DNA from: Vezdaea acicularis
Taxonomy: Eukaryota
NCBI GenBank assembly: GCA_026025075.1
Contig: JAPEUI010000001.1
Location: forward strand, 186,001 to 250,000
DNA: 64,000 bases
Direction: 5' to 3'
Positions 1 through 8,620 of this stretch are shown here, piece by piece. The notes under the pieces were generated by a model that was given only the letters and a program-made list of their open reading frames with translations, did not search any database and was not told the origin of the DNA. The translations under genes were made by a program, and so were the position numbers. Within the stretch, counting starts at the first letter, position 1; each line of letters starts with the position of its first letter.

Positions 1-1500
1 GGGTTGACAGATGCTCAGGCCCCAGGGCTTTCTCCTTTCCCTTCAATGCCCTGTTGTACAAAGCTTCAGCATCGTCTAGCTTGCCCTGATCACTGTATAA
101 ATTGGCTATGTTGTTGACGGTATTAAGAGTTGATAGGTGCTCTGACCCCAGGACTTTCTCTTTTCCCTCCAATGCCTTGCTATACAAAGCCTCAGCCTCA
201 TCTAGCTTGCCTGTGCTGCTATATAAGTTGGCCAAATTGCTGATGGTGTAAAGGGTTGACGGGTGTTCATGTCCCAGGGCCCTCTCCTGTCTAGCCAATG
301 CTCTCAAGTACAAGGCCTCAGCCTCATCCAGCTTGCCAGTGTCGCTATATAAGTTGGCCAAATTACTGATGGTATTAAGAGTTGACGGGTGCTCTGGCCC
401 CAACGCTTTCTCTTTTCCCTCCAATGTCCTGCTATACAAGGCCTCAGCCTCATCCAGTTTGCCTCGACTGCTATATAAGTTGGCCAGATTGCTGATTGTG
501 TTAAGGGTTGACGGGTGTTCACGTCCCAAGGCCTTCTCCTCTCCAGCCAATGCTCTCAAGTACAAGATTTCGGCATCAGCTAACCTGCCTTCTTGATGAT
601 ACAAGCTGGCAAGATTATTGAGGGTACTGAGGGTTGATCCGTGCTCTGGCCCCAGCGCTGCTATATATCCATTTGATGCTCGCTGGTACAAAGGTTCGGC
701 CTTTGTAAGCTCGCCTCTCTCACTATAAAGATTGGCCAGGTTGTTGACAGTATTGAGTGTTGATGTGTGCTCCGACCCCAAGGCCTTCTCTTTCCCTGCT
801 ATCACTCTTAGATACATACTTTCTGCCTCTTGTAGCCTGCCTTTCTTAGTATACAAGCTAGCTAGATTGTGGACTACTTCCAGCGTCGACGTATGTTCAG
901 GCCCTAAAGCCTTCTCCAGTCCATCTAATGCTCGTATATCCATATACTCGGCCTCATCCAGCATGCCTTGATCGGCATATATATTGCCCAAATTACCCGC
1001 TGTGATGAGGGTTGACGGATGTTCCGGCCCTACTGCTTCTTCGTATCCGGCTAGTGCTCGCCTATACATCGCCTCAGCTTCGGCCAACCTACCTTCGTTA
1101 CTATAAAGCAAGCCAAGATTATTGATTGTCTCAAGCTCTGGAATATGAGCCGGATCCGCTAAATTCTTAAGCCCAGCCAGTACCAGGAGTAGCAGTGATT
1201 CGGCGTCTCGCCATTTGCCTTGGGCTGTATATAATGCTCCTAGGTTGTTTATCGTACGGAGCGTTGATGGGTGCTCCGGCCCTAACTTTTGTTTGAATCC
1301 TTTCAAGGCTTGTTGAAACATGGATTCAGCATCTACAAGCTTGCCTTGTGAATTATACAGAAGACCCAGGTCATCCATTGTATGTAGCGTCGATGGGTTA
1401 TCAGGTCCAAGAACCCTTTCCTTTTCGTTCAACGCGAGTTGATACATTTTCTCAGCCTCCTTTAGCTTTCCCTGGTCATGATATAGCCTGCCTAAAACGT
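1..1500 (-). repeat. Coding tandem array of at least 12 x 126-bp (42-aa) TPR repeats
   Basis: A LGxEHPSTL-type motif recurs about every 126 bp (near 1390, 1264, 1138, 1012, 886, 760, 634, 508, 382, 256, 130 and 4). The DNA 16-mer ctatataagttggcca recurs near 220, 346 and 472. Confidence 0.95.
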
Positions 1501-4141
1501 GAAAAGATTCTCCACTAGACGGAGTTCTCACTTGATAGCTATCATCAACCTGTACCTCCATAAATAACTTTAAACAGCGGCTAGCATGGGGCAAAAGTCG
1601 TCGCTTTAGTGCATAGCTATTTGTATTTAGCTCTGTCGGTACCAATGAGCATATACAGCTAAGCGCTAGACAGATCATGGAATGATCGAGTTTGCTGTTG
1701 AGGGCGTTCAATGTCCAGTCGTGAAGAAGGGAATGCATACCAAATCCACCAGAGTGATTTGGTCCATTGATAAGACCGAAGTTATGAAGGTTCTTTATCG
1801 TTCTCATGAATGTGCTTTTGGATTGAGCTATAGTCTTCATCCACTCCGGAACATCTTCTGTCCCTGCAGCTAAGAGGTCAAACCAAACGTCTTGATTGTC
1901 GAAGTACGCCCAGAGTCGCAGTAGTTGTACGGCCGCTTTATCTTGCTGACGCAAGAGATTAAGTGACATGTTCCAAGTTCCATAGAGTGGGACTTCACAG
2001 GATGAGAGCTTTGGGGTGGTAAGTTGTCGAGTGGACAATACTTGAAGATATTTCTGCAAATATTCAGCAACTGTTATCATGCTGCGACTTAGGTAAGTTC
2101 CGGCAATAGACAGTGCAAGCGCATTGCCGTCAAGTAATTTCCACAATTCTCCGACGTCGGGATCTAATAGTCAAGGTTAGCTAAGTACCACAACACCAAT
2201 ACCCAAGCTTTCAACCTTACCTTGTCCTAAATCAACCCGGCCGGATGTCTGTGCTAGAATCGAGATGCCCTCATTTTCAGATAATTTAGAAACATCAATC
2301 GAAGTTCCAATCCTGGGGCCCTGCAAGCGTGTCGTGACAATGATAGAGCCTTGGCGAGTTTCAGGAAAGTAGATTTGAATGTTGTACGCGGGAGAGTCAG
2401 CGTTGTCAAATATTAGTAGCCAGCGCTCATTTCCTGGCAATTCCAACCAGCGCTTGACTGCTTGCACCAGTTCATTGAGAGCTAATAGATCTTGTGATTC
2501 TTCCAGCAATTCTTGAGGAATGGCTCCACTAGGAAGTTTCTCAGCAATCTCAAGAAAGCTCCGCTGCAGTGTCTCTTCATCACGAGCGTCAAACCATAGA
2601 ATGGCGTCGTAGGCTTGTTGATGTTGCCTGGCAAAATGAGTTGCTATCTGAGTCTTTCCTACTCCTCCCATGCCAAAGAGAACAACAACCTTGCGTAGTG
2701 AACCTGTAGGAGAGAAAAGGTTTTGCTCCATTGAGGACATAATCTCCTCTCTACCAACAAAGTGAATGGCCTCCCGTGTGTCAGAGGGGTAGAAAGGTAC
2801 CGTGAATTGATCTTTAAATGAGACAGAAGATGGGGTAATGAGCTTTGAGTAATCTGACTTCTCTCCATCCCAGACTAATCATTGTAAGTTTTTTTCTAAA
2901 TATCTCAGAATGAAAAGGAGACATCGATCCACATACATTTCTTATGGCTCAGATTGACAGCACAGTCATGGATCTGATTTCTGATCGGCTTTTCGTGCAG
3001 ATAACGCGTGATAGCCCACCGAACATCGTTCCACACTTCGTACTCTTCCCAAAAATCCCTCTGCAATCCTCGCTTTACGTTGAATCGGAAATAACGTTGC
3101 TCTGTGTAAAGAAGATCTCGGTGATTAATTGCAAATTCACGTTCTGCGTTCTCAGTCTGCGTTGCAATATCTCTGAGGGTTTCGAGAGTAGGCCGCAGCT
3201 CACGACCTTCTGGTAAAGTTCGGAGATTTCCGGGCCCAATCGACACCATACACTTGACCACTGATTCAAACCTGCCTTGCTTCGGCATCCAGATGTCTTG
3301 TGCCTCGGCCCAAACTTCATTCAGTGGGCTGATTTCTCCCAAAGTCTGATCAACATATTCCTGGCCATAGTATCCTTGTTCGATCCGATCAGGATCGAAC
3401 AACGGGCTTGCCGCACACGTCGCTAGTGCAGCCTGCCATATTGTGGCACTTTCTTCAGCCTTTGTGGTGTCACAGGGGTAGGTACGAAGCCTTGAAATTG
3501 ATTTGTTGGCTTTTCGTACAGCACATACAAATCTAACTCAAATCAGCGTTAAGACATTTTCTATTGGAGCAACGCAGTATTACGCTCGACATCTTCGTGG
3601 CTCTGGTCCGTTATCATTGAGCAGCGCTATTTCTGGATCTTCATGTCGCGATATAATGCGTTTTATGCCTGCTCTAAAGGCATACGGTTTTAGCTGCAGA
3701 GCAAATCGCATCCGTGGTGGCTCAAGCTCATCTTCCATTAAATCCTCGAGGAGCCAGATACATCTGCCAACGTCCATTTCTAACCGACCGAGCATGATCG
3801 CAATAAGGCTGAAGAATATGCATTAGCTAGAATTCAGTGGAATTAAGATGAGCCCTGCATGTGAGACCTACCCGCCATAGGATGTCCCTCCAATAAGATC
3901 AAACACTTCACAAGGTTTCACTGCTGGAAGCCCATTCTCTTGACGCACCGAGTTGATACTTCTCATAAGCTCTCGAAGGATGTAAAGCGTTGATAGTCCA
4001 CAACCACCGTCGCCATCTGTGTCCAGTGACTGTCAGCATTAGATTTAAACACATTGATAGATTGTTCTTACCAAGAGACAGCAAACATAATCCATGCTTA
4101 TCGCGATCAATCTCAACATCCGTGACATGTGCCTGCGCCAT
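1..4141 (-). CDS. NLR-like protein with patatin-like phospholipase, NB-ARC and TPR domains (PLP-1-type architecture); 6 exons, 3' end outside the window
   Basis: Manual splicing with five introns (approx. 4071-4017, 3871-3809, 3583-3533, 2936-2875, 2220-2164) gives one frame: MAQAHV..GLCLLSL|DGDGGCGLSTLYIL..PCEVFDLIGGTSYG|GLIAIMLGRL (patatin), then FVGRE, P-loop GMGGVGKT, Walker B LLIFDNAD, IIVTTR, GNALA, MHSLLHDW, RRLLPHA, then 42-aa TPRs. No stop was seen in the segments translated by hand (~2163-1260 and 360-1); running off the edge without a stop would explain its absence from the ORF track. Confidence 0.93.
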
Positions 4142-4396
4142 GAATATGGTTGGTGATCTTCAAGCTGATAAACGTACAAAGAATATAAGATCAAGAATAG
4201 TTATAGCCTGGTACGAGAATATGTAAAGATAGAGATAGGTCTAGCAAGCACAAGCACATTGGCTTTAGCAGCTTTTGCGAGTAGCGAAGGAAGTAAGGGG
4301 GCCTTTGTTGGTATTAATCCAAGTCCCTCATGCATGCAAGCAAACTCGCAGTGCTCGGGTCCAGGATGCGGGAGTTCAAGAGATGATTTGTGCTGG

Positions 4397-4524
4397 CTCG
4401 TTTCGCCTCAGCCTTGCGAATACATTGTGTATGTACCCTCTACGAACGAGGCTACATGTACTGACTCGTCTCGCCTCAGCCTTGCGAACACTTTGTATAT
4501 CCTCCACGTACCAGGGTACATGTG
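4397..4524. repeat. Imperfect direct tandem duplication (2 copies, period 68 bp) upstream of the NLR
   Basis: ctcgtttcgcctcagccttgcgaatacattgtgtat...gctacatgta (4397) versus ctcgtctcgcctcagccttgcgaacactttgtatat...ggtacatgtg (4465). Confidence 0.9.
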
Positions 4525-5336: not shown

Positions 5337-6439
5337 ATGGTATCCCTTTCCGCCGTACAAGCCTCCAACGGACGCATCGCGTCCGCCCTCCCCTCTGGCC
5401 TCGTCGCCGTCTTCGTTGGCGCCACCAATGGCATCGGCGAGGCATCGTTGAAGCAATTCGCGAAGGACACCCGCAAGCCGCGCGTATACTTCGTCGGCCG
5501 CTCGCAAGAAGCCGGCACGCGCATCGCCGCCGAGTGCAAGGCCCTGAACGCCGAGGGCGAGTATACGTTCATAAAAGGGGACACCAGCCTCATCCGCAAT
5601 GTGGACGAGATATGCGCTGACCTCAAGCGCAAGGAGAAGTCGATTAACCTGCTCTTCCTCACTATTGGAACGTTGATAGCTGGCGTTGGTACATATCCCC
5701 CCTTCTTCCCCGCACACCATCCCTCTTCAACGCCCATCTGGCTAACCACCACCACCTCCTCCCCACAGAAACCGCCGAAAAGCTTCACTACGCCGCAAGC
5801 TTAGTCCTCTACAGCCGCACGCGCTTCGTCGTGAACCTCCTCCCCGAACTTCAAGCCGCCACCTCTCTCCGCCGCGTCGTTAGCGTCCTCGCCGCCACCA
5901 AGGAAGGCCCGATCAACACCGCCGACCTGCAAGGCTGGAAAGTGCCAATTCTGAAACAGCAGGGACAAGGCGCCTCGCTCGTGACGCTTTCTCTCGAGTC
6001 CCTCGCGCAGAAAGCGCCAGACGTGTCTTTCATCCACAACTTCCCTGGCGCGGTCAAAACCGGCATCGCGCGCGGCACCACCGGCGCCCTCATGGCCGTC
6101 GTCAAGACTGTGTTTACCCTCCTCGGCCCCTTTTTCTACATCCCCCTCAAGGAAGTTGGAGAACGCCATGTCTTTCTCGCCACCAGCGCGAAGTATCCTG
6201 CGCGCAAGGAGGGGGCGGCGACGGCGGGCGTGCCGTTGGGGGAGGGCGTGGTGGTTGCGAGGGGCACGGACGGTCGGCCCGGTAGCGGGGTTTACTCTGT
6301 TGACGTGAACGGAGAAAGTGCAGGGCCGAAGGTAGAGGAGCTGTTGGCGGGGTTCAGGAAGGAGGGGTTGGGGGAGAAGGTGTGGGAGGAGGTGGAGAGT
6401 CAGTTCGTACGGATTACGGGGAAGGTGTCGGCGGCTTAG
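5337..6439 (+). CDS. Atypical short-chain dehydrogenase/reductase (Rossmann-fold oxidoreductase), 2 exons
   Basis: VAVFVGATNGIG nucleotide-binding motif and INLLFLTIG. Intron 5689-5768 (gtacat..gctaac..cacag) joins to ETAEKLHY..LYSRTRF..NLLPEL and SFIHNFPGAVKT. No canonical YxxxK was seen. Confidence 0.9.
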
Positions 6440-6486
6440 AGGGACGCGTTGTGCGTAGCACTTGGTTCGGGCTTGGTGTTCTTTTA

Positions 6487-6671
6487 ATGCGTCTTACAGC
6501 TCTTTTGTAATGTCAATTCAGCGGGATGATAAACTATGGGAGCGAGGGTGCGGTTCAATAAGCTATAGATGCGTCTTACAGCTCATCTGTAATGTCACTT
6601 CAGCGTCTTGATAGGTTGAGGACGCGTGGGTGCGGTTTGATAAAGCTATCAATGCATCTTACAACTTCATC
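6487..6671. repeat. Tandem repeat, period ~82-83 bp, ~2.2 copies, between convergent 3' ends
   Basis: atgcgtcttacagctc..tgtaatgtca.ttcagcg..gggtgcggtt..ataagctat starts at 6487 and 6569; a partial copy (atgcatcttacaact) starts at 6652. Confidence 0.9.
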
Positions 6672-7096
6672 CACAAACCCAATACAGCGGAACAAGACTC
6701 TGAGCAAGGGAACTCTGTCCCTCAATTCCGAACACCCGTTATCAAACTAGCCCCACATCCTCACGCTTCTCTTCCTATCACCAAACACCAATTGAATCCA
6801 CAAGATCATTAAGTCAGAAAGATATATTGACAGCCTAGACAGCCAAGAGAGCCACCCTAAGCACAAGGTCCCTAATATGGGGTATACAGAGAATCAGAAA
6901 TATAGAGGATGCGCCACCACCCAAAAAAAAAATATTAGCCGACAAGATATCCGCCGATGCAGGAACGGCGTAAGTCCCCGCTGGGAAAAAAAACGCCAGG
7001 TCGGTCCTTTGAGGTATGTACATGAATAGATTGGTGCGAAAGTCGCCGTCGTGTGACGAATGAAGCATGAAAAGAGCCAGCTCAGGCCTACAGGGG

Positions 7097-8620
7097 CTAC
7101 TCGAAAGGCTGAGCCGCCCATTCCCCCTCTTTCTCGTGAATGGACTCCTCGCGCTGCCTCTCCGCCTCCTCGCGCTCCCGTTCTTCCTCCTCCCTCTCCT
7201 TCTCCTTCTGTTCCAACTCAAAGCGTTCCCTCTCCTCATTCTCTCTCGCGATGCGTTCGTCGTAATCGTCTTCTAGGTCTTCAGGCCACTGGGGCGTATA
7301 ATCGGCGTCGCCGTCCCAGAGCTTGCGCAGGTTCTGCCGGACGTCGAAGACGATGTCCCACGTGAAGCCCTTGTCGCGGAAGCCGCCTTCTTCCTTGGTG
7401 CGGTCCGAGTCGCGCCCCGTGCTGCCCATCGGCTTGTGCACGCCCACCAGCGGCGGCCAGACGCCCACGCATTTGATATTCTCCTTGCACTCTGACGAGA
7501 TGCTGAGGTCGATGTCGGTGTTTGCGTCCTGGAGGGCCTGCAGGAGGCGCCGCGCGCCGCGCTTCGAGACGGCGTAGCCCGCTAGGCAGATCCCGCCGTC
7601 CGTCGGATACATGATGCGGGTTTGCTCGGGGTACATGCTTGCGTCGGGGAAGCCGACGATAGTCCAGCGCCGGTTGCGGCGGGGAACGGTAGGGCCCTGC
7701 TCCATCACGAAGGTGCGATTGTCGGAGCCCAGGAGGCCTTGCCCGCAGTGGCCTAGCCACAGCATGTCCCAGGTGTCGCCGTAGGGGGAGTTGGGGGTGT
7801 GACGGCTGTTGGGGTCGTTGCTGAAGAGGCGGGCGCCGTAGGCGTAGGAGGAGAGTTGTTCGCGGAAGTGCACGTCCCAGCTGGCATCGTCTTCGAAGAG
7901 GAGGGCGGAGGTTAGGTCGGAGGCTACGATTCTGTGGGGGATGTTAATGGGGGGACTATTGAGAGGGAAGAGGAGGGGGGGAGAGGGGCGTCATAGGCCG
8001 GAAGGAAAGGCGTACTCGTGGAGGACGTTCATGTGGGCGCGCATACAGCCCAAGCTGGCCGTTATGAGTGTTTTGTCCCAGTGCTATGTAGTCGTCAGCG
8101 CTTGACCGCAATGGAGCGGGGTATTGGGAGCAGTACGGGAGGGTACGCCTTCTCATGTATCTTGTCACCATCGACTCCATCACGGAACTCGATATCGATC
8201 CCTGACGCCGAACCGGCGAGGGTCAGGGCATCGCGTTTGTCGGTGCGATCTGGCATGCTCATAGCGAATATCTTTTGAAACTATCGCGCAAAAGTCAGCC
8301 ACCGCCTCCAGCCCAACGTTACCTCAAACAGGTCTGGGCGCGCTTACGCCCAAGGTTCTGTTGTATATAGGATCGTAGCCCTTGCCCCCAGTCTCCCCGA
8401 AGAATGTCGGTGCGTATTTCCATGTTGAGTTGGGGATTTCTTGGAGGGTCACCGAGGCGCGTTCGTGGTTGAAGGCGACGAGGAAGAAGAGAACGCACGA
8501 GACCACGCCCGCGACATAGATACGACGATTGATGCGCCCGCTGCGAATGGCGTCCACGGCCTGCATGATGGGCGACCGCTTCTCGGTCGTCGAGAAGTCC
8601 ATCGCGCCCGGCAAAATCAT
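7097..8620 (-). CDS. Glycosyltransferase family 25-like type II membrane protein, 4 exons
   Basis: N-terminal TM (IYVAGVVSCVLFFLVAF), then IYNRTLG|FQKIFAMSMPDRTDKRD, DGVDG, GCMRAHMN, ALLFEDDASWD, WDMLWLGHC and GYAVS, with an acidic/coiled E-R tail. Introns approx. 8347-8281, 8137-8085 and 8015-7933. Alternative start at 8602. Confidence 0.88.

Follow-up and report, generated by a model that had tools for sequence, protein, structure and literature searches.

The NLR gene at the left end of the window (the whole 64,000-nucleotide stretch of Vezdaea acicularis DNA analysed here) raises the question of whether its N-terminal patatin domain is still a phospholipase. An earlier note on this DNA had read the region 3330–4016 as part of a fungal NLR with a degenerate, possibly pseudo-enzymatic patatin effector domain. 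In a splice model based on homology, the gene comprises six exons on the minus strand, from 4141 to 1, and its 3′ end lies outside the window. The spliced frame of 1284 codons has zero stops and encodes patatin, NB-ARC and TPR domains as far as the window reaches. All five introns are GT..AG introns of 51–63 nt, and all five exon junctions are continuous with the homologues P0001, P0002, P0003, P0049 and P0047. The coordinates 3330–4016 correctly bracket the catalytic motifs in this model, which is laid out as follows.

1–4141, minus strand: whole NLR gene; start codon 4141–4139, 3′ end beyond window base 1
4072–4141, minus strand: exon 1, Met1 to the first base of Asp24; N-terminus aligns with P0002 and P0047
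4017–4071, minus strand: intron 1, 55 nt, GT..AG, with a TGCTGAC branch-like site
3872–4016, minus strand: exon 2, carrying the glycine loop and the nucleophile elbow
3809–3871, minus strand: intron 2, 63 nt
3584–3808, minus strand: exon 3, helical, variable part of the patatin domain
3533–3583, minus strand: intron 3, 51 nt
2937–3532, minus strand: exon 4, C-terminal half of the patatin domain and linker
2875–2936, minus strand: intron 4, 62 nt
2221–2874, minus strand: exon 5, NB-ARC NTPase; P-loop 2674–2651, Walker B 2419–2396
2164–2220, minus strand: intron 5, 57 nt
1–2163, minus strand: exon 6, ARC/winged-helix part and TPR array; 126-nt repeats at 1–790

The domain order, patatin, NB-ARC and then TPR, is that of a fungal NLR, with the C-terminus lying beyond the window. 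The Pfam NB-ARC profile (PF00931) scored 41.8 bits on exon 5 against a cut-off of 23.5, TPR_12 scored 453 bits in 10 stretches, and TRF found a period of 126/252 with 72–85% matches in the TPR array. The P-loop GMGGVGKT and the Walker B motif LLIFDNAD are both present, 29 of the 31 conserved NB-ARC columns are kept and 2 deviate, and the GLPL motif reads GNAL. The closest database relatives are annotated as patatin/NB-ARC/TPR proteins and come from lichen fungi. The Pfam domains and these annotations confirmed the NLR identity proposed earlier, and the P-loop, Walker B and TPR frame, which had been claimed to be intact, are all present in the model. The same three-part architecture, in the same order, is found in PLP-1 of Neurospora crassa, HET-Z1/PaPLP1 of P. 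anserina and vic2 of C. parasitica, which are patatin/NB-ARC/TPR NLRs of allorecognition. The window's NLR resembles PLP-1 by architecture and differs from it in having non-canonical loops around the catalytic dyad.

Homology of the head to patatin family members is clear (E=7.6e-47 and 2.1e-59). The best match in the protein collection showed 54% identity over exon 4 and 72–74% over the 47-residue exon 2, and exon 2 was 62–74% identical to the 120 homologues among the matches listed; searches of this collection with exon 4 and exon 2 returned no close orthologue. The Parmeliaceae proteins P0001 (Alectoria fallacina) and P0003 (Cornicularia normoerica) are 46–49% identical over exon 4 and, together with P0049, form the sister group in both the patatin and the NB-ARC trees, with intron-compatible junctions. 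Unlike the window's NLR, these relatives carry canonical GTSTG, ATSAAS and YVDAGLGxNNP motifs where covered, and P0002 (Pseudevernia) has a canonical DGGGVRG loop. With exon 4 as query, 0 PDB chains were matched by sequence at E≤10. The solved structure closest to the family by sequence is CapV (PDB 8ZR9, 9KEJ), which P0002 matched with E=6e-12 in an alignment that takes in the glycine loop, the elbow, SAAP and DGG..NNP. CapV, a cGAMP-activated patatin phospholipase of bacterial CBASS, and the NLR are alike as death effectors switched on by assembly; CapV reads GGGVRG, GTSIG, SAAP and DGGLVANNP, and the window's protein differs at each.

After splicing, the glycine loop reads D24-G-D-G-G-C-G30, with the Asp24 codon split by intron 1. 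The active-site motifs of the head are located as follows.

3997–4014, minus strand: variant oxyanion/phosphate-binding loop Gly25-Asp26-Gly27-Gly28-Cys29-Gly30, from the spliced model and homologue alignments
3874–3888, minus strand: elbow G67-T-S-Y-G71, with nucleophile Ser69 at 3882–3880 and the unique Tyr70
3406–3423, minus strand: A184-T-C-A-A-S189, where the family consensus is A-T-S-A-A-[STP]
3325–3357, minus strand: Y206-V-D-Q-T-L-G-E-I-S-P216, with catalytic Asp208 (3351–3349) kept and four near-invariant neighbours changed

The readings DGDGGCG, GTSYG, CAAS and YVDQTLGEISP of the earlier note were reproduced in the spliced model. Other splicing or framing that might restore canonical motifs was rejected, as read-through of intron 1 shifts the frame (ORF 3908–4159). 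The elbow G-T-S-Y-G, which had been described as kept, has the G-x-S-x-G form and includes Ser69, and both residues of the Ser69–Asp208 catalytic dyad are present. The loop G-D-G-G-C-G departs from the phospholipase form G-G-G-x-[RK]-G and agrees with the wider (G/A)XGXXG, while Asp208 is followed by Q-T and the D-G-[AG] or D-x-[GA] motif is not formed. The supporting loop residues alone are altered and no indispensable catalytic residue is lost; with Ser69 and Asp208 still in place, the label "pseudo-enzyme" goes too far. The reading of CAAS as an aberrant SAAP held in part: the Ser-to-Cys change is unusual (Cys186 in 2 of 192 homologues), but the final Ser is ordinary, because SAAS and SAAT are normal in the clade.

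The rarity of these residues was evaluated in two alignment sets, one of 194 homologues and one of 118 further exon-2 homologues, together about 310. In the 194-homologue set, position 26 was G122/A3/S1 of 126 without any D, position 29 was R113/K5/E5/H2/C1/W1 of 127, and position 70 was T in 130 of 137 without any Y. Toward the C-terminal half, position 186 was S in 164 of 192 and C in 2, and position 189 was T78/S65/P31 of 192. Around the catalytic Asp, position 209 was G142/A47 of 192 (G or A in 189; no Q), position 210 was A100/G81 of 191 (A or G in 181; no T), position 214 was N in 187 of 191 (no I), and position 215 was N in 190 of 192 (no S). The exon-2 set gave the same picture, with G116/C1 at position 26, R115/C1/Q1 at position 29 and T115/I1 at position 70. 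Thus Asp26 occurred in 0/126 and 0/117 homologues and Tyr70 in 0/137 and 0/116, while Cys29 was found once per set (1/127 and 1/117). Where covered, none of the 194 + 118 homologues has Asp26, Tyr70, Gln209, Thr210, Ile214 or Ser215. In total, the head carries eight substitutions at active-site positions that are otherwise near-invariant, and the homologues of both sets share them rarely or never. The alignment check called for by the earlier note showed that the loop substitutions have few or no counterparts in about 310 homologues, and, judged by these alignments, the motif departures of the NLR head are more than chance variation.

A similar erosion was seen with the Pfam Patatin profile (PF01734), which was scanned on single exons only. 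Exon 4 scored 18.2 bits in this single-exon scan, under the cut-off of 27.7, compared with 32.6 and 28.6 bits for the equivalent fragments of P0014 and P0006; exon 2 alone (47 residues) gave no match at E≤10, and its P0002 equivalent gave 25.4 bits. Across the columns conserved at ≥90%, the NLR model departs at 9/56 and keeps 47/56, ranking 5th of 195.

The rate of change was then compared with that of the Parmeliaceae relatives. In a Tajima relative-rate test of the model against P0003 with P0049 as outgroup, which leaves the glycine loop outside the test since P0003 is without that region, the model was faster in the patatin head, with 68 vs. 20 unique changes (p=3e-7). The NB-ARC domain gave 54 vs. 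31 unique changes (p=0.013), and the acceleration differed only marginally between the two domains (Fisher p=0.066). Terminal branches of the model and its sister were 1.19 vs. 0.33 in patatin and 0.87 vs. 0.50 in NB-ARC. The terminal branch of the model was the third longest of 117, and the two longer ones belong to members without the Ser.

A roughly 90%-identical relative on metagenome contigs, which could be chimeric, allowed codon changes to be classified in 1–426 and 3523–3714. The second of these intervals contains the fast-evolving patch of the head.

3607–3714, minus strand: fast patch, codons 104–139; against the metagenome relative, 16 codons changed non-synonymously and 0 synonymously

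For these 36 codons, the 16:0 ratio has P of about 0.001–0.004 under neutrality. Another reading frame for codons 104–139 was considered and discarded, the model frame being the only one stop-free in both the NLR model and the relative. The excess of non-synonymous change suggests positive rather than relaxed selection on this patch. In contrast, the TPR codons, compared over a repetitive stretch in which the alignment may be out of register, differ by 14 synonymous vs. 6 non-synonymous changes (P=0.0003 against a neutral expectation of 30% synonymous). Divergence from the relative is mosaic, about 0.8% in 3239–3608 vs. 9–18% elsewhere. A scan of metagenome loci with exon 4 gave 55 pattern matches, none of them confirmed; one of the six patterns was located in the stretch that is near-identical in the relative, and it too gave no confirmed match.

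Taken as a whole, the gene probably encodes a weakened or repurposed lipase rather than being a dead gene, and about an even chance is given to a working NLR whose lipase head is impaired or repurposed with its dyad kept. In such a receptor, the TPR sensor and NB-ARC switch would still oligomerise upon activation, and the N-terminal patatin head would retain its fold and the Ser69–Asp208 dyad. Three elements of the head are gone: the phosphate-binding Arg of the loop, the central Gly of the oxyanion loop, replaced by Asp, and the two pairs that flank the catalytic Asp, G/A-G/A and Asn-Asn. A role for this Arg in stabilising the phospholipid phosphate has been proposed for R21 of CapV (PMC12480259) and for cPLA2 and Pat17 (PMC3198459), and in cPLA2 the oxyanion hole is described as formed by the loop Gly196-Gly-Gly-Phe-Arg200 (PMC3521694). 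The most likely consequence would be that this lineage has little or no phospholipase A activity left. The head, evolving fast and apparently with one patch under diversifying selection, might then be kept because its function has changed or is no longer catalytic, for instance as homotypic patatin contact, a recognition surface, or weak esterase activity on phosphate-free substrates. The family signature, eroded in the exon 2 and exon 4 Patatin scores, argues for an impaired head. On the other side, the 47/56 conserved columns kept could reflect continued catalysis, the 16:0 patch is just as compatible with adaptation of an enzyme that still works, and the kept dyad, a loop within (G/A)XGXXG and the precedent of ATGL without the Arg would also fit an active enzyme.

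A tentative alternative is that the head remains a working acyl hydrolase but has moved from phospholipids to another substrate, such as neutral lipids or other esters, or to transacylation. By analogy with mammalian PNPLA1-5/ATGL, neutral-lipid patatin enzymes in which the loop Arg is missing, the unique substitutions and the fast patch might possibly represent adaptive remodelling of the substrate pocket. The oxyanion consensus of the PNPLA superfamily is given as (G/A)XGXXG (PMC2435558), into which the G-D-G-G-C-G loop fits. In active ATGL, hydrophobic residues are reported to replace the phosphate-binding Arg of cPLA2/Pat17, and certain Gly-to-Ala loop mutants of ATGL to stay active (PMC3198459). 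The PNPLA1-5/ATGL proteins thus share with the window's protein an (G/A)XGXXG loop without the phosphate-binding Arg (PMC2435558, PMC3198459); they are not fused to an NLR, and the likeness is one of loop pattern. The earlier note had counted the same variants in known active patatins as evidence against its reading, and this was partly borne out, by the loop pattern and by the missing Arg of ATGL. The kept Ser–Asp dyad, the 47/56 conserved columns and the 16:0 ratio in codons 104–139, which suggests positive and not relaxed selection, likewise speak for a substrate shift. However, an acidic middle residue of the oxyanion loop was found in none of the homologues of either set (0/126 + 0/117), and D-x-[GA] is broken to D-Q-T whereas in PNPLA1-5/ATGL the catalytic Asp is described as still followed by G-G/A (PMC10291501). 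Neither Asn of the NNP turn remains, and the residues that replace them occur in 0/191 and 0/192 homologues. Moreover, loop variants in the family nearly always come with a lost nucleophile.

This last point was quantified in the 119 relatives whose alignment covers loop and elbow alike; 8 of them have lost the nucleophile Ser. The Ser was absent in 4/5 loop variants vs. 4/114 canonical loops (Fisher p=4e-5). Loss of catalytic residues affects a measurable share of the patatin-NLR relatives, and no discussion of it was found in the literature searched. Patatin heads without Ser and/or Asp recur in the NLR-length relatives P0128, which matches NB-ARC, P0194, which matches NB-ARC and TPR, and P0105, which matches TPR. 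In the tree, the relatives with lost catalytic residues sit on long branches, each in the midst of canonical members instead of in a group of their own. Like the NLR head, P0105, P0128, P0160, P0179, P0194 and others are patatin homologues with eroded active sites, but they have lost Ser and/or Asp while the window's protein keeps both; by its residues, the latter is a milder and differently patterned case.

The impaired or repurposed head may be extended to a broader, rather unlikely proposal, namely that the window's NLR is an early-stage member of an undescribed "pseudo-patatin" NLR class that arose in several independent fungal lineages. The head of such proteins would no longer be a phospholipase and would be kept as a fast-diversifying contact or recognition module, signalling through or restraining canonical patatin proteins. 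If true, the class would be a fungal counterpart of the plant sensor/helper NLR pairs. Where a fungal NLR carries an enzymatic head, the assumption is that this enzyme does the killing directly; to our knowledge PLP-1 is the sole tested case. A maintained NLR with a fast-evolving lipase head, eroded at its active-site loops and locally under diversifying selection, would offer a natural test of whether fungal effector domains turn into adaptors or decoys, as happens in plant NLR networks, or change their substrate. NLR biology has hardly been explored in lichen-forming fungi, the source of the closest named relatives.

A special case of the impaired head, modelled on plant paired NLRs, is a sensor-only, decoy or inhibitory NLR that would act through, or restrain, a canonical patatin NLR or a stand-alone patatin. 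The intact sensor and switch beside eroded effector loops and the recurrence of Ser/Asp-less heads in P0128, P0194 and P0105 are compatible with it. The catalytic domains of CapV and iPLA2-beta are described as acting as dimers or filaments (PMC12480259), and therefore homotypic patatin contacts are plausible. The gene neighbourhood did not point the same way. Neither the 28 of 37 ORFs of at least 180 aa scanned across the window nor 43 of the 44 ORFs of at least 85 aa at 6.4–17.1 kb yielded a second NLR, a patatin or a SNARE gene; the scan extends over the 60 kb that lie right of the gene and could miss small or intron-rich genes. The PLP-1/SEC-9 locus has a linked sec-9 SNARE; no SNARE domain was found in the scanned ORFs right of the window's gene. 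Such loci are also marked by highly diverged haplotypes or balancing selection, a trait on which the mosaic divergence from the metagenome relative and the 16:0 patch may bear. With no partner gene among the scanned ORFs of the window and no fungal paired NLR of this kind found in the literature searched, the sensor or decoy role is regarded as improbable.

The remaining explanation is early decay or a null allele, in which the odd residues would be early neutral changes, with stops and frameshifts still to come. Repeat-induced changes were excluded as a source of the G-to-A and C-to-T differences, no RIP signature being found by the indices (TpA/ApT 0.75; (CpA+TpG)/(ApC+GpT) 1.44). In the metagenome relative, 66 nt (3173–3238) give way to 65 dissimilar letters, possibly a frameshift in that sequence. 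The long terminal branches in patatin and NB-ARC, the GLPL motif degraded to GNAL and the relative's exon 4, possibly 1 nt different in length, would fit decay, but 1284 codons without a stop, five canonical introns, the missing RIP signature, the synonymous bias of the TPR changes, a rate of change far lower at conserved columns (9/56) than overall and a 16:0 patch above neutral expectation make it very unlikely. The stops and frameshifts by which the earlier note would have recognised simple decay thus did not appear in the NLR model, which is free of stops and of a RIP signature. On the sequence evidence, simple decay of the gene is contradicted, because stops and a RIP signature are absent, the NB-ARC motifs are intact and the TPR changes are mostly synonymous.

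The patatin/NB-ARC/TPR NLR gene occupies the minus strand, with its start at 4141 and its 3′ end beyond the window edge at base 1. Joining of the six exons predicted from sequence signals and homology gave a single open, stop-free frame of 1284 codons. Introns 1-5 all carry GT..AG borders (55, 63, 51, 62, and 57 nt), the five exon junctions were all unbroken in local alignments with homologous proteins, and leaving intron 1 unspliced shifts the frame (ORF 3908-4159).

Exons and active-site motifs of the spliced NLR model
4141-4072, minus strand, exon 1
4016-3872, minus strand, exon 2, with glycine loop and nucleophile elbow
3808-3584, minus strand, exon 3
3532-2937, minus strand, exon 4, weak Patatin match
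2874-2221, minus strand, exon 5, NB-ARC
2163-1, minus strand, exon 6, TPR array
Residues 24-30, loop, D-G-D-G-G-C-G
Residues 67-71, elbow, G-T-S-Y-G
Residues 184-189, A-T-C-A-A-S
Residues 206-216, Asp motif, Y-V-D-Q-T-L-G-E-I-S-P

Pfam scans were run separately on each exon. Exon 5 matched NB-ARC at 41.8 bits (cut-off 23.5) and exon 6 a strong TPR array (TPR_12, 453 bits, 10 stretches), the 3′ end of which consists of 126-nt units with a mutual likeness of 72-85%. Exon 4 matched Patatin weakly, at 18.2 bits and under the cut-off of 27.7, and exon 2 scanned alone gave no Patatin match, whereas the 47 equivalent residues of the canonical relative P0002 scored 25.4 bits and the exon-4-like fragments P0014 and P0006 scored 32.6 and 28.6 bits, so that the Patatin signature of the model is measurably eroded. 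Despite this, sequence comparison leaves its homology to the patatin family not in doubt, as exon 4 matches patatin/NB-ARC/TPR proteins of lichen-forming fungi at E=7.6e-47 and ORF fragments at E down to 2.1e-59. P0002 itself (Pseudevernia consocians, 356 aa, 'patatin-only') stops exactly where intron 4 of the window starts and diverges thereafter; its gene model may have been cut short, with a full NLR behind it instead of a stand-alone patatin.

The active-site positions were compared with 194 homologues, comprising 5 long and 41 short exon 4 matches and the best 150 of 9065 representatives retrieved with P0002, two of which duplicated earlier exon 4 matches.

Active-site residues of the model and of the aligned homologues
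Position 26, model Asp; G122, A3, S1 of 126; no Asp
Position 29, model Cys; R113, K5, E5, H2, C1, W1 of 127
Position 70, model Tyr; T130 of 137; no Tyr
Position 186, model Cys; S164 of 192; Cys in 2
Position 209, model Gln; G142, A47 of 192; no Gln
Position 210, model Thr; A100, G81 of 191; no Thr
Position 214, model Ile; N187 of 191; no Ile
Position 215, model Ser; N190 of 192; no Ser

A second set of 118 homologues found with exon 2 gave G116/C1 at position 26, R115/C1/Q1 at 29, and T115/I1 at 70. The departures in the window are thus real and statistically unusual, and the atypical loop and Asp motifs described in the earlier note were borne out as far outside the usual variation of the family. 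Its reading of SAAP to CAAS as a whole departure was not, since the clade ordinarily has Ser or Thr at position 189 (T78/S65/P31 of 192), and only Ser186Cys departs from the norm.

In patatins, the oxyanion hole is made by the glycine-rich region, the nucleophile sits in GXSXG, and the proton acceptor in DGA/G (PMC12871566, PMC10291501). The oxyanion hole of cPLA2 is Gly196-Gly-Gly-Phe-Arg200, with the VipD counterpart Gly42-Gly-Gly-Ala-Lys46 (PMC3521694), and the phospholipid phosphate is thought to be held by the loop Arg in cPLA2 and Pat17 (PMC3198459) and by R21 in CapV (PMC12480259), by sequence the solved structure nearest to the family (P0002 vs. 8ZR9, E=6e-12, all four motifs aligned). 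By these roles, the model has lost the phosphate-binding Arg, has an acidic side chain midway along the oxyanion loop, and has altered residues around the catalytic Asp. The head departs from the norm and its phospholipase function is probably compromised, in partial agreement with the earlier note, whose suggestion of a pseudo-enzyme is unproven: Ser69 and Asp208 are both retained, the loop G-D-G-G-C-G matches the wider PNPLA consensus (G/A)XGXXG (PMC2435558), and ATGL, which likewise has no phosphate-binding Arg but hydrophobic residues in its place, is an active neutral-lipid lipase, some Gly-to-Ala loop mutants of which stay active (PMC3198459).

These same features would suit an active enzyme with a changed substrate, a prediction that we regard as possible but rather unlikely. 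Against it stands the behavior of the loop elsewhere in the family. Among 119 homologues with both loop and elbow aligned, eight have no nucleophile Ser, and its loss was found in 4/5 loop variants vs. 4/114 canonical loops (p=4e-5); the sole loop variant keeping Ser, P0187, shares its Arg-to-Cys change with the window. The loop thus seems free to vary only once catalysis is irrelevant in this family, and mainly for this reason an impaired or lost phospholipase was ranked above an active one with a new substrate. We give about an even chance to a live NLR whose head is impaired or repurposed, an estimate that takes in a putative paired or decoy version, itself improbable.

The Ser-less relatives, P0105, P0120, P0128, P0148, P0160, P0179, P0189, and P0194 (and P0109), have often lost the Asp too. 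Pfam architectures were patatin + NB-ARC for P0128, patatin/NB-ARC/TPR for P0194, and patatin + TPR for P0105. Their nearest tree neighbors are mostly canonical, suggesting repeated independent losses, and they are predicted proteins from genomes and metagenomes, some of which may be pseudogenes or faulty gene models. No description of catalytically eroded patatin heads in fungal NLRs was found in non-exhaustive full-text term searches of an open-access library; if real, their recurrence would add to the interest of the gene in the window.

The pace of evolution of the head was also assayed. Both domain trees place the model as sister to P0003 (Cornicularia normoerica, name per source) and P0049. 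In a relative-rate test with P0049 as outgroup, 68 model-unique vs. 20 P0003-unique changes were counted in patatin (p=3e-7; the Gly loop is excluded, as the first ~42 residues are absent from P0003) and 54 vs. 31 in NB-ARC (p=0.013), the contrast between the domains being marginal (Fisher p=0.066). Terminal branches of the model and P0003 were 1.19 vs. 0.33 in patatin and 0.87 vs. 0.50 in NB-ARC. Among the terminal branches of a tree built from 117 well-covered patatin domains, that of the model (1.13 vs. a median of 0.6) ranks third in length after those of P0105 and P0160, two proteins without the nucleophile Ser. At similar NB-ARC identity, its patatin identity to relatives was 0.377 vs. 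0.461 for other pairs. The model deviates at 9/56 columns conserved at ≥90% (5th of 195) and keeps 47, so its fold is still constrained. These results indicated that the patatin head is evolving differently from those of its relatives.

Early decay of the gene, in which such changes would simply accumulate, is very unlikely, as frame and splice sites are intact, RIP indices gave no RIP signature, being close to the rest of the window (TpA/ApT 0.75; (CpA+TpG)/(ApC+GpT) 1.44), and the NB-ARC part is mostly conserved. In detail, among columns conserved at ≥85% in 24 full-length relatives, 11/79 deviate in the patatin part (2nd of 25) and 2/31 in the NB-ARC part (8th of 25), one being GLPL read as GNAL. 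This G-N-A-L lies in the 2161-2100 region (residues ~575-580), where P0001 (an Alectoria fallacina protein), P0003, and P0049 keep G-L-P-L; a 9-residue loop after Walker B in these three is absent from the model. Further, a ~90% identical metagenome relative was present on contigs in four DNA runs of one moss-metagenome study. Over the TPR end, 1-426, one of two stretches with completely listed differences, 14 changed codons are synonymous and 6 non-synonymous (P=0.0003 for so many synonymous changes if 30% are expected under neutrality), which indicates purifying selection there. Stops, frameshifts, and neutral change, named in the earlier note as signs of simple decay, were thus looked for, with no stop and a TPR end under constraint as the outcome, indicating that the gene is not decaying.

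A different pattern was found in exon 3, where a patch of DIVERSIFYING change (3609-3714, codons 104-139) differs from the metagenome relative at 19 bases in 16 codons, all 16 non-synonymous (P=0.001-0.004 for no synonymous change under a neutral 70% non-synonymous expectation; Fisher p=1.3e-5 vs. 1-426). Of the six frames, that of the model alone is stop-free in both versions. On the plus strand, a 114-codon stop-free antisense frame (3482-3826) runs across exon 3, without sign of coding, as the 19 differences give 2 synonymous and 14 non-synonymous codons.

Immediately downstream of the patch, 3239-3608 is ~99% identical to the metagenome relative over 370 nt (one difference in 3239-3366, two in 3374-3551, none listed in 3523-3608), while the flanks 384-2891, 3079-3172, and 3609-4400 show 82-91% identity (9-18% different). 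This mosaic suggests that diverged haplotypes of the NLR have undergone recombination or gene conversion, although the contigs, being metagenomic, could be chimeric; such a haplotype mosaic is typical of NLR or het-type loci. The near-identical stretch contains intron 3, the CAAS motif, and the variant Asp motif, so that the latter, common to both versions, is not independent evidence of constraint. In the relative, 2892-3078 (187 nt) is swapped for 185 unlike letters and 3173-3238 (66 nt, all within exon 4) for 65; the latter change might break its frame.

The surroundings were scanned for domains in 28 of the 37 ORFs of ≥180 aa across the window; the nine omitted were three NLR ORFs and six overlapping other ORFs in a different frame or strand. 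The genes of the right-hand 60 kb are ordinary.

Domain matches beside the NLR gene
5338-6439, plus strand, short-chain dehydrogenase
7100-7990, minus strand, GT25-like ORF, weak
10.8-13.5 kb, RSE1/DDB1/CPSF1-type beta-propeller protein
17.1-21.0 kb, exocyst Sec3
Right-hand 60 kb, P450, class-V aminotransferase, GYF protein, Sec7/BIG-type GEF, 2-oxoacid dehydrogenase E2, P5A-ATPase, macro-domain protein, Glu/Gln-tRNA synthetase, mitochondrial carrier

No SNARE, NLR, or patatin domain was found at 6.4-17.1 kb in 43 of 44 ORFs of ≥85 aa, the omitted one overlapping the dehydrogenase on the opposite strand. The dehydrogenase and the next ORF (5338-8300) form a local compositional jump, with ~62% G+C vs. 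46-50% in the NLR gene and the greater part of the window. Upstream of the NLR start codon, at a distance of ~250-360 nt, a 44-nt element is present as two direct copies (4389-4432 and 4457-4500, 68 nt apart and 86% alike). Another element, of 75 nt, occurs in two direct copies (6487-6561 and 6569-6643, 79% alike) immediately downstream of the dehydrogenase gene, and a third, weaker copy seems, by eye, to be next in line.
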